Below are positions 2,546 through 6,681 of a stretch of DNA of 36,465 nt, in pieces. Position numbers and translations under genes: made by a program. The notes beneath the pieces were generated by a model. The model saw only the letters and a list, made by a program, of their open reading frames with translations, did not search any database and was not told the DNA's origin. Each line of letters begins with the position of its first letter. Within the stretch, counting starts at the first letter, position 1. The stretch comes from a virus: positions 1-36,465 of the IMG/VR virus record IMGVR_UViG_3300045988_017676, one strand, 5' to 3'.

Positions 2546-2559
2546 AGAACAAATGTTCG
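2546..2559. promoter_or_regulatory. LexA/DinR (Cheo) box 1
   Basis: AGAACAAATGTTCG against Firmicute consensus CGAAC-N4-GTTCG, with both GAAC/GTTC cores intact. Lies 10 nt upstream of the -35. Confidence 0.6.
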
Positions 2560-2568
2560 AATAAAATG

Positions 2569-2597
2569 TTGATTTTTGTCCACTGAGATAGTATTAT
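2569..2597 (+). promoter_or_regulatory. Sigma-A type promoter for the 36-aa ORF
   Basis: TTGATT, 17-nt spacer, TATTAT. Confidence 0.6.
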
Positions 2598-2611
2598 ATA
2601 TTCAGGGATTT

Positions 2612-2624
2612 CGAACAAGTGTTT
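2612..2624. promoter_or_regulatory. LexA/DinR (Cheo) box 2
   Basis: CGAACAAGTGTTT: left half perfect, right half GTTT as seen in clostridial boxes. Lies about +8 to +20 relative to the predicted start. Confidence 0.5.
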
Positions 2625-2646
2625 TTGCAGTTAGGGGGATGGCAAA

Positions 2647-2757
2647 ATGGATGAACAAAAACAAAGGTTGCATGAAATGATTGATAATATGTCAAATCCT
2701 AAATTGGTTAACTACATATACAATCTCATTAAATCCTTTATTGAATTGCGGAGCTAA
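2647..2757 (+). CDS. 36-aa helical mini-protein, candidate SOS-controlled antirepressor or co-regulator
   Basis: MDEQKQRLHEMIDNMSNPKLVNYIYNLIKSFIELRS. SD AGGGGGA 7-8 nt upstream. Below the ORF-track size cutoff. Its 3' end overlaps the repressor 3' end by 4 nt. Confidence 0.5.
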   Translation: MDEQKQRLHEMIDNMSNPKLVNYIYNLIKSFIELRS

Positions 2758-2768
2758 TTCGGCTCCGC
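2748..2768. terminator. Shared hairpin at the convergent gene ends (bidirectional terminator candidate)
   Basis: GCGGAGC-taattcg-GCTCCGC followed by TTTATTC on the plus strand. A/T-rich on the other side. Confidence 0.6.
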
Positions 2769-3125
2769 TTTATTCTTTTCATGCAGACTAATTACTATCT
2801 GCCGTATTGCACTTTTGTCGTCAACTGGAAGTGAATTGTACATCTTTATAAAATCCATCAGTTCTACATTCGCAAGTATGCTGGCGTCAACAGTTGCATC
2901 GGAATCAAGTTTTTCATCTAATAAATCTGATTTTCCTATTTTAAAGTAATCCGCAAGTTTTTGAACCTTACCAAGACCAGGCATCGAATTTCCTTTGCAC
3001 CACATATTTAAAGTACTTGGGTTCTCGCCAATATCCTTAGCTACTTCGTTTTGTTGCTTGTTATTTAAGGATAAGTAGTAATTCAAATTTTTAGAGAAAA
3101 TCCTTTTGGTGTTTTCATCATTCAT
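2754..3125 (-). CDS. CI-type lysogeny repressor, XRE-family HTH, no S24 peptidase domain visible
   Basis: HTH segment QQNEVAKDIGENPSTLNMWCKGNSMP. Start taken at the ATG at 3125 after GGAGGAAAATAAA. 123 aa. Divergent from the cro-like gene. Confidence 0.88.
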   Translation of the reverse strand: MNDENTKRIFSKNLNYYLSLNNKQQNEVAKDIGENPSTLNMWCKGNSMPGLGKVQKLADYFKIGKSDLLDEKLDSDATVDASILANVELMDFIKMYNSLPVDDKSAIRQIVISLHEKNKAEPN

Positions 3126-3146: not shown

Positions 3147-3175
3147 ATTGTAAACCATAACACAAAAAAATTCAA
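3147..3175 (-). promoter_or_regulatory. PRM-like promoter for the repressor
   Basis: On the minus strand: TTGAAT, 17 nt, TACAAT, then GGAGG and ATG. The -35 is itself an operator half-site. Confidence 0.6.
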
Positions 3176-3205
3176 TATAAAATTCAATTATTTTGAAATT
3201 CAGTG

Positions 3206-3234
3206 TTGACAATTCAATTTGATTGAATTATAAT
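3206..3234 (+). promoter_or_regulatory. PR-like early promoter (perfect consensus)
   Basis: TTGACA, 17 nt, TATAAT. The spacer is entirely occupied by the palindromic operator. Confidence 0.8.
3212..3228. promoter_or_regulatory. Operator ATTCAAT-N3-ATTGAAT
   Basis: Perfect 7+7 inverted repeat inside the PR spacer. Extra AATTCAAT half-sites at 3169-3176 and 3181-3188. Confidence 0.7.
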
Positions 3235-3266: not shown

Positions 3267-3470
3267 ATGCCGAAGATATCTCTCGAAGCTGCAAGAGTCA
3301 ATGCTGGTCTTACGCAGAAAGAGCTTGCCGAAAAGCTAGGAGTTTCAAATACTACTATAGTGAACTGGGAAAAAGGAAAGACAGAACCTACTTATCCTCA
3401 ACTTATTAGAATAAGCGAGCTTTCAGGAATCCCTTTGGATTTTATTTTTATACCTGATAGATTCAATTAA
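3267..3470 (+). CDS. Cro-like XRE-family HTH regulator
   Basis: LTQKELAEKLGVSNTTIVNWEKGKTEP. SD AAAGGAGGAG. First gene of the rightward operon. Confidence 0.88.
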   Translation: MPKISLEAARVNAGLTQKELAEKLGVSNTTIVNWEKGKTEPTYPQLIRISELSGIPLDFIFIPDRFN

Positions 3471-3477
3471 ATTGAAT
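3461..3477. promoter_or_regulatory. Distal operator ATTCAAT-N3-ATTGAAT
   Basis: Second perfect copy of the same 17-bp palindrome, overlapping the cro stop codon, 249 bp from the first. Confidence 0.6.
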
Positions 3478-4691: not shown

Positions 4692-5501
4692 ATGAACGAA
4701 TTACAGATTTTTAATAACGAAGAGTTCGGAAAGATTCGGACAGTAACTATTGACAACGAACCGTGGTTCGTAGGAAAAGATGTGGCATCATCGTTGGGAT
4801 ATAGCGATACAAACAAAGCGGTGGCAATGCATGTAGAAAAAGAAGATAAAAAACTCAACGACAAATCGTCGCCGAGTTTCGGGCAGCGCGGAGCAACTAT
4901 TATTAATGAATCCGGCTTATATGCCCTTATCTTCGGTAGCAAGCTAGAATCCGCAAAAAGATTTAAACACTGGGTAACATCAGAAGTACTCCCAACACTT
5001 CGCAAGACCGGCTCTTACGAGATGCCAAAGAAGAAACAAAGCAACGAACGTCTTGCCAGTGTAAATAATGCAGTAAAGATTTTAACACCAATGCTTCAGG
5101 CAGCAGGGTGCAACAGTAAAATCCAGCTTCTGACAGCAAAATCGCTCTACGAAAAAGCAGGTGTCAATCTCCCAATCATGATTGAGGCGGATCAACAGTA
5201 TTATGACACCGTACATATCGCGCGGCAGGCAAGATTGTATTATCAAAGCTCCGGTAAGCCGGCAGATAAGGCAGTCAACGAGATCATCCGCAGATTGGAT
5301 TTATCAGAGGATCTATACACAGAAACTTGGGAATCTAAAGGAAACTGGCAGGGACCCGTCCGGAAATATGCTCCGCAGGTCATTGACATGGTAAAGCAGT
5401 GGTACTCAGATCATGGATATCCGAGAGAGATTGAGTATACGCAGTGTGACGGACAGATCAGACGGTATCATGTGATTTTTAGAGATTCAGAGGCGGCGTA
5501 G
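4692..5501 (+). CDS. BRO N-terminal domain antirepressor-like protein
   Basis: LQIFNNEEFGKIRTVTIDNEPWFVGKDVASSLGYSDTNKAVAMHVEKEDK fits the Bro-N pattern. SD TAGGAGA. Confidence 0.88.
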   Translation: MNELQIFNNEEFGKIRTVTIDNEPWFVGKDVASSLGYSDTNKAVAMHVEKEDKKLNDKSSPSFGQRGATIINESGLYALIFGSKLESAKRFKHWVTSEVLPTLRKTGSYEMPKKKQSNERLASVNNAVKILTPMLQAAGCNSKIQLLTAKSLYEKAGVNLPIMIEADQQYYDTVHIARQARLYYQSSGKPADKAVNEIIRRLDLSEDLYTETWESKGNWQGPVRKYAPQVIDMVKQWYSDHGYPREIEYTQCDGQIRRYHVIFRDSEAA

Positions 5502-6021: not shown

Positions 6022-6681
6022 ATGAAAAAATTTGAATTAACCAGTGAATTTGTGACTTTTTTAGGAAAGAAGCTTTTTAGGATTAAGGCACTAATCTCTT
6101 TTGGGAATGTGGAAGAGGGAGAACTTGGTGGATATGTGGAGAAAGAAGAGAACCTTAGCAACGATGGCAATGCTTGGGTGTCCGGCGATGCTTGGGTGTA
6201 CGGCGATGCTGAGGTGTCCGGCGATGCTTGGGTGTACGGCGATGCTGAGGTGTGCGGCAATGCTAGGGTGTACGGCGATGCTAGGGTGTACGGCGATGCT
6301 AGGGTGTACGGCGATGCTAGGGTGTCCGGCGATGCTGAGGTGTGCGGCAATGCTTGGGTGTACGGCAATGCTTGGGTGTCCGGCAATGCTTGGGTGTCCG
6401 GCGATGCTTGGGTGTACGGCGATGCTTGGGTGTACGGCGATGCTAGGGTGTGCGGCAATGCTGACTACGCCACAGTGCATGGATTTGGCTCCGAATATCG
6501 TACAACTACATTTTTTAGGACAAAAGCAGGAGATATTGGCGTGAGATGTGGTTGCTTTTATGGCACTTTGGAGGAGTTTAGAGCAAAGGTAAAGGAAACG
6601 CATGGGGAAACTAAGACTGCGAAAGAGTATTTGATGGTTGCAGATCTTATGGAGTTTAGATTTTCGAAGGAGGAAGCATAG
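6022..6681 (+). CDS. Hexapeptide-repeat (beta-helix-type) protein with a conserved C-terminal Cys-containing domain
   Basis: Sixteen G[DN]A[WRE]V[SYC] units, then ...VRCGCFYGTLEEFRAKVKETHG... SD TAGGAGGAAAA. Confidence 0.85.
   Translation: MKKFELTSEFVTFLGKKLFRIKALISFGNVEEGELGGYVEKEENLSNDGNAWVSGDAWVYGDAEVSGDAWVYGDAEVCGNARVYGDARVYGDARVYGDARVSGDAEVCGNAWVYGNAWVSGNAWVSGDAWVYGDAWVYGDARVCGNADYATVHGFGSEYRTTTFFRTKAGDIGVRCGCFYGTLEEFRAKVKETHGETKTAKEYLMVADLMEFRFSKEEA
6166..6453 (+). repeat. 16 tandem 18-nt coding repeats GGC-RAT-GCT-(TGG/AGG/GAG)-GTG-T(C/A/G)C, plus a degenerate 17th unit to 6471
   Basis: Units were written out one by one. 14 of 18 positions are invariant in all 16 copies. Confidence 0.97.

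Follow-up and report, generated by a model that had tools for sequence, protein, structure and literature searches.

The stretch of viral DNA analysed here is record IMGVR_UViG_3300045988_017676 of IMG/VR, positions 1 to 36,465 (36,465 nt; hereafter the window). It carries a 36-codon gene that converges on the gene of a short helix-turn-helix (HTH) repressor and is preceded by a promoter lying between two LexA (SOS) boxes. We consider it likely that this locus is an SOS-derepressed small antirepressor acting on the C-terminal oligomerisation helices of the repressor. The best-supported description of the design is a stand-alone, SOS-only version of the AimX-AimC pair in Lachnospiraceae phages, without AimR/AimP and without sequence homology to the proteins of that pair. 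The window itself is essentially a whole temperate siphophage or prophage of Ruminococcus (Mediterraneibacter) gnavus, near phiRg507T2_2. Its identity across this region is 93-96%, both to phiRg507T2_2 and its relatives and to phage RG-TP1.

The predicted SOS promoter and its small gene

A preliminary description of this DNA had placed two LexA boxes on either side of TTGATT-17-TATTAT, with a Shine-Dalgarno (SD) sequence and a 36-codon open reading frame (ORF) downstream. All of these elements could be read directly from the sequence at the positions given in Table 1. The term consensus promoter, however, was an overstatement, since 9 of the 12 hexamer positions agree with the consensus. Taken alone, such a match is at chance level (11 sites in 3.1 kb versus 10.4 expected). 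LexA-like boxes with at most one mismatch were not enriched over the window either (18 observed versus 11.6 expected). The significance of the two boxes therefore comes from their position and conservation and not from their frequency in the window.

Box 1 is identical at 13 of 14 positions to the core of the Clostridioides difficile recA operator, GAGAACAAATGTTTG, which is bound by LexA in vitro as measured by surface plasmon resonance (PMC4234289). Box 2, which lies 15 nt past the -10 element, is one base away from GAAC-N4-GTTC and fits GAAC-N4-GTTT, the form that predominates in C. difficile. GAAC-N4-GTTT/C is the LexA motif used for clostridia and Bacillus (PMC4234289). Binding of the two boxes by LexA in R. 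gnavus is thus predicted from the motif.

Conservation of the boxes was analysed in an alignment of five phages together with 22 further IMG/VR contigs that share a 26-mer around box 2. Box 1 is unchanged in 26 related phage loci of four immunity types, where the DNA from this box through ATGGA(T/C) in the small ORF hardly varies; box 2 is also invariant in the relatives. In the loci L107-L112, box 1 is kept with a different N4. Three of these (L107-L109) repeat the two-box geometry, i.e. box, about 8 nt, -35, 17 nt, -10, about 14 nt, box. Their promoter between the boxes is TTGAAA-17-TAATAT/TATTAT, their N4 cores (AGAT, GAAT and GTGC) and spacers differ from those of the window, and a perfect GAACGTGCGTTC stands where the window has box 2. 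The E-type loci have a single box right after the -10, equivalent in position to box 2. When the upstream sequences of the family were grouped into 46 distinct clusters, a perfect GAAC-N4-GTTC was present within 170 nt 5' of the small-ORF start in 30 of them, with about 0.7 expected (0.015 per region). A box with at most one mismatch was present in 36 of the 46 (0.068 expected per region). Across these clusters the N4 and the surrounding DNA vary, and the GAAC/GTTC positions alone are conserved. No perfect box was found in the 300 nt downstream of the repressor in any of 40 control loci. As judged from these alignments, the boxes are a conserved footprint and an element separate from the immunity cassette.

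The small ORF is a real protein-coding gene, because its in-frame pN/pS (ratio of nonsynonymous to synonymous polymorphism) is low, it has an SD sequence and it was called by independent pipelines. Over 40 distinct coding sequences, pN/pS was 0.08-0.26 in frame versus 0.8-2.9 in the other frames, which indicates purifying selection. The ORF was called as a gene in metagenome assemblies with 68-75%-identical repressors and is annotated as hypothetical gp44 in RG-TP1; phiRg507T2_2 encodes an identical peptide, the gene of which is unannotated there. Homologues are present in 122 loci, and the convergent arrangement is kept. In an exhaustive phmmer search of 1.84 billion proteins, the close relatives fell into nine clusters at 50% identity, and every cluster ends in the core ...NPKL.NYL.NLIK.FLELRS. 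The peptide of 4.4 kDa is hydrophilic, with a grand average of hydropathy of -0.64 and an isoelectric point of 6.5.

The stop codons of the two genes were described beforehand as overlapping by 4 nt inside a shared hairpin, which is correct. The repressor gene, on the minus strand, ends at 2754, and the 4 nt shared with the small ORF (2754-2757) are located within the hairpin GCGGAGC-N-GCTCCGC at 2748-2768, which is followed by TTTATTCTTT. The folding energy of the terminator RNA is -16.3 kcal/mol (z = -3.9). Equivalent junction hairpins were found in alleles B and E, where the two genes do not overlap.

Some further candidates in and around the small gene were rejected. The out-of-frame ATG at 2640 (ATGGCAAAATGG, 13 codons, 2640-2681) is not a gene; it overlaps the SD sequence and is absent in alleles with GGGGGATCGCGAAATGG. 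The library matches obtained with the peptides are noise (DUF6038; phrog_32332 with E = 1.4e-4 for one member; estrogen receptor). The sole other perfect GAAC-N4-GTTC in the window, at 4758-4769, is most likely a coding coincidence, being located 66 nt into the Bro-N gene where it encodes the conserved N-E-P-W-F motif of the Bro-N domain. A one-mismatch box 5' of the integrase gene (GAATGCATGTTC, 1389-1400), with the integrase start at 1345 on one side and a terminator further upstream at 1468-1502 on the other, is probably due to chance; no counterpart was seen in the related loci that were searched. We also observed that one locus, L071, has a second, longer peptide-family match (MNKKELDEFENMALEEKKNKIIEMIRKLPNEAPIYKALYEFIKEVTRT) elsewhere on its contig, which may come from another immunity region.

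Promoters without a LexA box occur within the peptide/repressor family (L116-L118, L120-L122, L073 and L084), and an extra small HTH gene is found just upstream in the same direction in L118, L122 and RG-TP1. These observations suggest alternative or additional inputs. About 100 nt 5' of the small promoter, a 16-nt palindrome, GTCCCAGATCTGGGAC, was observed in RG-TP1-type and other loci (about 2914-2929 in L004). This palindrome or a variant was seen in the upstream regions of L107-L109, L113, L115 and L116, and a variant with compensatory changes, GTCCGAG(A/C)TCTCGGAC, in loci without LexA boxes. Termination or the binding of another regulator could be its role.

Association of the peptide with the repressor C-tail

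The repressor had been described as an HTH-only protein of 123 amino acids, and the domain search agreed with this. From the ATG at 3125, HTH_3 is the sole Pfam domain and Peptidase_S24 was not found. The N-domain is similar to 2kpj (E = 8e-22). There are 157 homologues at E<=0.001; of the 120 listed, most have about 120-125 residues (range 76-151) and none has an S24 domain. The AlphaFold2 (AF2) model, built with 58 homologues, has a predicted local distance difference test (pLDDT) score of 89.9. It comprises the HTH domain (residues 3-69), a linker of lower confidence (70-76) and three tail helices (77-85, 87-97 and 101-120) with pLDDT of about 96. The C-tail is predicted to be a dimerisation/oligomerisation module.

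The immunity region is mosaic, with a joint directly after the ATGGA of the small ORF. From codon 3 of the ORF onwards, one of four unrelated alleles is substituted for the whole block of ORF, repressor, operators and cro; the peptides of these alleles have 32-36 and the repressors 114-132 residues. In the allele-B phages, TTCGAA-type repeats take the place of the ATTCAAT-N3-ATTGAAT operators, and the operators therefore belong to the exchangeable immunity cassette. The pairing of peptide and repressor is strict, with no peptide allele found beside more than one repressor allele. The four peptide alleles are homologous (same length class, gap-free alignment) at 13-36% identity. In alleles B-D the HTH domains are unrelated but the motif of the tail is similar (helix - L[DP]xxxK - helix), and the peptide is kept.

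The association extends beyond the close relatives. In 74 further viral contigs, we found repressor relatives of about 50% identity with the same N-domain and a different C-tail ending in ...RFKRIILEYDNLPPDKKDLLCDFFEKFIF. Each of these contigs has a convergent ORF of 38-48 codons that belongs to the peptide family (MDYKKEIIEMIQKIH...). The upstream DNA of these 74 contigs is unrelated to that of the window, yet TATAAT is followed within about 10 nt by GAAC(A/T)AATGTT(C/T). Likewise, where the repressor relatives are 45-75% identical, the unrelated upstream DNA still has a -10 element followed by GAAC(N4)GTT(C/T).

The repressor alignment was also used to scan species-representative genomes, with search patterns that fell in the HTH. 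The scan gave 47 loci, nearly all in Lachnospiraceae or other Clostridia. The convergent peptide gene was present in 7 of the 7 loci, all from Lachnospiraceae, that encode a repressor of about 122 residues with a helical tail. Within 2.5 kb, no peptide-family ORF was found in any of the 40 loci with the same HTH and S24-type (211-220 residues) or other C-termini (Fisher p = 1.6e-8). In addition, peptide identity tracks the identity of the C-tail (Spearman rho 0.84) over that of the N-domain (0.63). These facts suggest that the partner of the peptide is the C-tail of the repressor rather than its HTH domain.

A lysogen of phiRg507T2_2 (allele A) has been reported to be resistant to phiRg507T2_3 (allele B) (PMC10072058). 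Because the repressor, the operators and the peptide differ completely between the two phages, this cross-immunity must have a cause other than the repressor, such as a prophage-encoded exclusion function.

Mechanism, alternatives and known systems

We propose the following sequence of events. In the lysogen, the host LexA would occupy the two Cheo-type boxes, one 5' of the -35 and the other just past the start site, and would silence the 36-codon gene. Upon DNA damage, RecA would be activated and LexA would undergo self-cleavage. A short transcript ending at the junction terminator would be made, and the helical peptide of 4.4 kDa would build up. The peptide would then bind the C-terminal helical tail (about residues 77-120) of the CI-type repressor. 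This tail is the predicted dimerisation/oligomerisation module, and the resulting hetero-complex would be unable to hold the ATTCAAT-N3-ATTGAAT operators. The strong rightward promoter would then fire, with expression of cro, Rha, Bro and the replication genes. At the locus itself we saw no SOS route other than the small gene: there is no S24 domain, no ImmA-like metalloprotease among the genes neighbouring the repressor (the domain scan covered these neighbours) and no repressor operator at the small promoter. A two-mismatch match to the operator at 2718-2734, inside the ORF, is at chance level. RG-TP1, the small-gene promoter of which is the same as in the window and the immunity allele of which is B, was recovered by mitomycin C induction (PMC13435783; GenBank source field), which is consistent with an SOS-controlled antirepressor.

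The preliminary description had proposed a LexA-gated mini-protein as the output of SOS sensing. This proposal has gained from the box footprint, the purifying selection, the co-variation with the repressor, the tracking of the C-tail and the precedent of AimX/AimC; the antirepressor function is the part that we infer. The contact between peptide and repressor, and its disruption of oligomerisation, are expected here because both have been demonstrated for AimX-AimC of Bacillus arbitrium phages.

Several facts weigh against an antirepressor of this kind under SOS control. The co-variation of peptide and repressor could partly reflect their linkage in one recombination cassette, and the closeness of the peptide and C-tail coding regions may contribute to the rho of 0.84. 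The isolated C-tail model gave no Foldseek match. The assignment of the boxes to LexA uses the motif of Firmicutes and C. difficile rather than one derived from R. gnavus. About 10 of the 46 upstream clusters have no LexA box; SOS control is therefore frequent in the peptide family and not universal. The peptide family has no detectable sequence similarity to AimX, to SinI or to any Pfam, PHROG or PDB family. The preliminary description had not recognised the peptide as any described antirepressor, which is true of the sequence, and a functional analogue, AimX, has been described. Similarity between the peptide and the repressor C-tail was not found either: hhalign gave no alignment between a 24-member peptide profile and a 90-member tail profile, and most pairwise z-scores of local alignments with shuffles were non-significant. 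A SinI-like origin, in which the peptide would be a paralogue of the repressor tail and mimic it, is therefore unsupported as homology, although a SinI-like mechanism may still apply.

Other explanations of the locus differ in what they take to be the effector or the signal. If the transcript were the effector, SOS-induced convergent transcription or antisense RNA would lower the repressor and the ORF would be incidental. The genes are convergent and share 4 nt, and such an effect was originally proposed for aimX in arbitrium phages; convergent transcription had also been suggested in the preliminary description as a second layer. A strong terminator (-16.3 kcal/mol with a T-run) is, however, located exactly at the junction, equivalent hairpins exist in alleles B and E with non-overlapping genes, and the ORF has an SD sequence and is under in-frame purifying selection. 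Moreover, in phi106 and phiW23 a start-to-stop mutation abolished the effect, and recoded and extended antisense constructs were inert (10.1101/2025.11.23.689978). We regard an RNA effector as very improbable. The chance that the small gene is an unrelated SOS-induced moron (small toxin, division inhibitor or exclusion factor) that came to lie in the immunity cassette by accident seems only marginally better. The SOS regulons of Firmicutes do include small proteins, and morons (genes for a lipoprotein and for a bacterial PH-domain protein) are present between int and the repressor gene. The peptide, however, contains no hydrophobic segment, its tail-to-tail position with the repressor is fixed across very different phages, integrases and neighbours, and it is strictly associated with one type of repressor C-tail.

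Two further explanations concern LexA, and to each we assign a slight probability, below that of an RNA effector. The peptide could be a LexA co-factor or SOS modulator, similar to GIL01 gp7 or AriS, that acts on the host LexA/RecA and not on the phage repressor. It is small, helical and encoded beside LexA boxes, and such proteins are known from Firmicute phages (PMC4551915, PMC9043618). The R. gnavus hosts, however, have essentially one LexA, yet four peptide alleles (13-36% identity) stand behind a near-identical promoter. A binder of LexA would be expected to be conserved and not allele-specific. Here each peptide allele is tied to its own repressor, and the peptide is absent where the repressor C-terminus differs. 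The gp7-like option of the preliminary description is thus disfavoured, as the peptide diverges together with the repressor while the promoter stays constant in mostly near-identical phage genomes. Alternatively, the boxes could be operators of a phage regulator or of another host regulator, and the promoter would then answer to another signal. TTCGAA, the unit repeated in the allele-B operators, also occurs in the flanks of the boxes; about one fifth of the family members have no boxes, and upstream of some there is an additional HTH gene or a different palindrome. This explanation is opposed by the fact that the boxes are unchanged where repressors and operators (e.g. ATTCAAT-N3-ATTGAAT here) differ completely. 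A role of the flanking TTCGAA as allele-B operators is ruled out on the same ground, the boxes being identical in phages of all immunity types. Furthermore, the GAAC/GTTC positions alone are conserved with a variable N4, and box 1 is nearly identical to a clostridial LexA operator for which binding was found in experiment (PMC4234289). An SOS-derepressed antirepressor directed at the repressor C-tail accounts best for the locus in our judgement.

The closest known architecture is that of the extended arbitrium phages phi106, phiW23, BMBtp14, Wbeta and Waukesha92 (Kabel et al., November 2025; PDB 9sf2). Their gene order is aimR-aimP, a LexA site (phi106-type), aimX, aimC and a divergent cro-like aimL. 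In phi106, phiW23 and BMBtp14, an AimX ORF of 29-80 codons is convergent with and overlaps aimC. AimC is an HTH repressor of 80-140 residues without autocleavage, and AimX captures its C-terminal helical oligomerisation domain to give a heterodimer that is unable to bind DNA. When the aimX start was mutated to a stop, the mitomycin C and arbitrium responses of an aimL reporter were lost in the phi106 locus and phiW23 lysis was reduced; an antisense effect was ruled out. The AimX proteins show strong sequence divergence and co-variation with AimC, and the authors note an analogy with SinI/SinR. According to the same authors, many extended arbitrium systems have no LexA site, and very few close homologues of AimC or AimL were found outside arbitrium systems (all 10.1101/2025.11.23.689978).

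The locus of the window resembles AimX-AimC-AimL in that a small ORF (36 codons, with a 4-nt overlap) is convergent with the 3' end of a short HTH repressor gene that has a divergent cro-like gene. The repressor consists of an HTH, a flexible linker and a C-terminal helical domain (predicted here by AF2), the small proteins are divergent, helical and co-varying with the repressor, and phi106 aimX likewise has a LexA site just 5' of the ORF. In contrast to the arbitrium loci, neither aimR/aimP nor any upstream gene in the same direction is present here; the lipoprotein and PH-domain genes are on the other strand. No aimR or aimP was found 5' of the small ORF in the window or in the related loci inspected, and the input is therefore LexA only. 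Many members of the present family have two boxes around the promoter, and their hosts are Lachnospiraceae (Clostridia) and not Bacillus. The peptide profile matches no chain of 9sf2 at E<=10, and the similarity of the repressors is weak and at the level of the HTH. In a profile search, the repressor matched 9sf2_A at E = 0.014, mainly in the HTH, and 9iaq_A, a 142-residue HTH cro/C1-type chain, at E = 0.55. With Foldseek, the whole repressor model could be aligned from end to end, with weak scores, to 9sf2_A, the phi106 repressor in its complex with AimX (E = 0.02, template modelling score 0.42), and to SinR 1b0n_A, a result that is dominated by the HTH. Binding of the small protein to its repressor was shown in the Bacillus phages; here it is predicted.

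SinI-SinR of B. subtilis (PDB 1b0n) is similar in that a small helical protein is proposed to capture the C-terminal multimerisation helices of an XRE repressor. SinI, however, is homologous to the tail of SinR, whereas the peptide has no detectable homology to the repressor tail. No SinI domain (Pfam PF08671) was matched by the repressor or by the 19 peptides tested. SinI-SinR further differs in being under Spo0A control, with the genes in the same orientation, and in serving a host biofilm circuit and not a phage switch. Tum of phage 186, the GfoA-GfhA-type proteins of Gifsy/Fels (PMC3121763) and AntC of N15 likewise tie a non-cleavable repressor to SOS through a LexA-repressed antirepressor. 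These proteins are unrelated to the peptide and mostly larger, and their genes are not linked to that of the repressor. Action in trans on several prophages is frequent among them, and they are associated with the E. coli-type CTGT-N8-ACAG box. The gene of the window, in contrast, is located in the immunity cassette and appears to be allele-specific.

A LexA-controlled small antirepressor, Sar, has been reported in SPbeta-like phages (10.1101/2025.11.27.690993). It is also a small antirepressor of a Firmicute phage with a Cheo-type SOS box in its promoter, and there are also multiple specific repressor-antirepressor pairs. Its target SroF, however, has an integrase fold and Sar mimics DNA, whereas the repressor here is an XRE HTH protein and the evidence points to its C-tail and not to the DNA-binding surface. 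Small phage proteins also decide induction in GIL01 (gp7; PMC4551915) and in the Vibrio TF-smORF modules (Qtip; PMC10432266). The former acts on LexA itself, which does not fit the allele-specific divergence seen here. The latter share exchangeable sensory inputs before a small antirepressor and differ in using a dedicated transcription factor rather than LexA, with unrelated proteins. LexA-controlled small antirepressors and the same gene architecture are thus already known in Bacillus phages. No earlier description exists of the peptide family, of its occurrence without arbitrium, of the range of hosts concerned or of the input cassette, which is apparently exchangeable.

Other features of the locus and implications

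The coordinates of the features are collected in Table 1. To the left of the small ORF are genes for a lipoprotein, a bacterial PH-domain protein and a tyrosine integrase, as assigned from ORF translation and Pfam. To the right of the repressor are a divergent promoter that matches the consensus at 12 of 12 positions and genes for a Cro-like HTH protein, a Rha protein and a Bro-N protein. The perfect operator at 3212-3228 sits between the -35 and -10 elements of this lytic promoter. The third operator copy may be a roadblock or a looping site.

Table 1. Positions of the features in and around the immunity region of the window.
Feature	Position	Strand	Remarks
bPH_1 protein gene	1508-1882	minus	Pfam
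Lipoprotein gene	1913-2377	minus	Domain search
LexA (SOS/Cheo) box 1, AGAACAAATGTTCG	2546-2559		Perfect GAAC-N4-GTTC, 9 nt 5' of the -35
Sigma-A type promoter of the small gene, TTGATT-17-TATTAT	2569-2597	+	-35 at 2569-2574, -10 at 2592-2597
LexA box 2, CGAACAAGTGTTT	2612-2624		GAAC-N4-GTTT form; about +8 to +20 from the predicted start site
Shine-Dalgarno sequence, AGGGGGA	2633-2639	+	7 nt 5' of the ATG; kept in all alleles
36-residue small gene, predicted SOS-induced antirepressor (AimX-like in function)	2647-2757	+	Encodes MDEQKQRLHEMIDNMSNPKLVNYIYNLIKSFIELRS
Intrinsic terminator	2748-2778	+	8-bp GC-rich stem and T-run across both stop codons; fold and sequence
CI-type repressor, 123 residues	2754-3125	minus	XRE HTH 3-69, linker 70-76, helical C-tail 77-120
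Candidate repressor-maintenance promoter, TTGAAT-17-TACAAT	3147-3175	minus	Sequence
Operators	3182-3228		Perfect palindrome ATTCAAT-N3-ATTGAAT at 3212-3228; degenerate copy at 3182-3198
Early lytic promoter, TTGACA-17-TATAAT	3206-3234	+	12/12 consensus
Cro-like HTH protein, 67 residues	3267-3470	+	Divergent from the repressor; AimL-like in position
Third perfect operator copy, ATTCAATTAAATTGAAT	3461-3477		Downstream of cro, upstream of the Rha gene

Two repeat regions were observed in addition. A 58-bp direct duplication, GTTATATC(A/G)TATTAAATC(C/A)AAAT, is located just 5' of box 1 (2440-2462 and 2498-2520), and its two copies flank a small hairpin at 2471-2486. One copy is present in phiRg507T2_2 and phiRg507T2_3, and both copies in phiRg519T2. 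The ORF at 6022-6681 (plus strand) contains an 18-nt tandem repeat (6166-6462; 16.5 copies, 89% match) that encodes a GDAWVY/GNAWVS hexapeptide-like repeat protein, and a short stretch of this region matches a 'putative acyltransferase' of another phage record.

R. gnavus is a gut bacterium associated with inflammatory bowel disease, and induction of its prophages occurs in vivo. For many Firmicute phages with non-cleavable repressors, it has long been unclear how DNA damage is sensed. The 36-codon gene, which is unannotated in most records, is a candidate for the switch through which SOS (antibiotics, inflammation, genotoxins) leads to induction. The design of a LexA-boxed small antirepressor has not been described before for phages of gut Clostridia, and the AimX/AimC design seems to extend to a second bacterial class, where it would work without quorum sensing. 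The boxes predict which gut prophages respond to SOS-inducing drugs, and allele-specific induction or curing of particular prophages could be achieved with the peptide.

The input stage is apparently exchangeable. A broader idea, which we put forward as plausible but tentative, is that the pair of peptide and helical-tail repressor is a portable output stage, widespread in Lachnospiraceae phages, whose sensory input is swapped exactly at the start codon. If this is true, one conserved LexA-box cassette would serve four or more immunity types among the R. gnavus phages, and other members would have swapped it for box-free promoters, some of them behind an extra HTH gene or a different palindrome. 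Some gut prophages of the peptide family would then be induced by signals other than DNA damage, and the arbitrium system of Bacillus would be a special case, with AimR as the input, of a broader plug-in small-antirepressor architecture in Firmicute phages.

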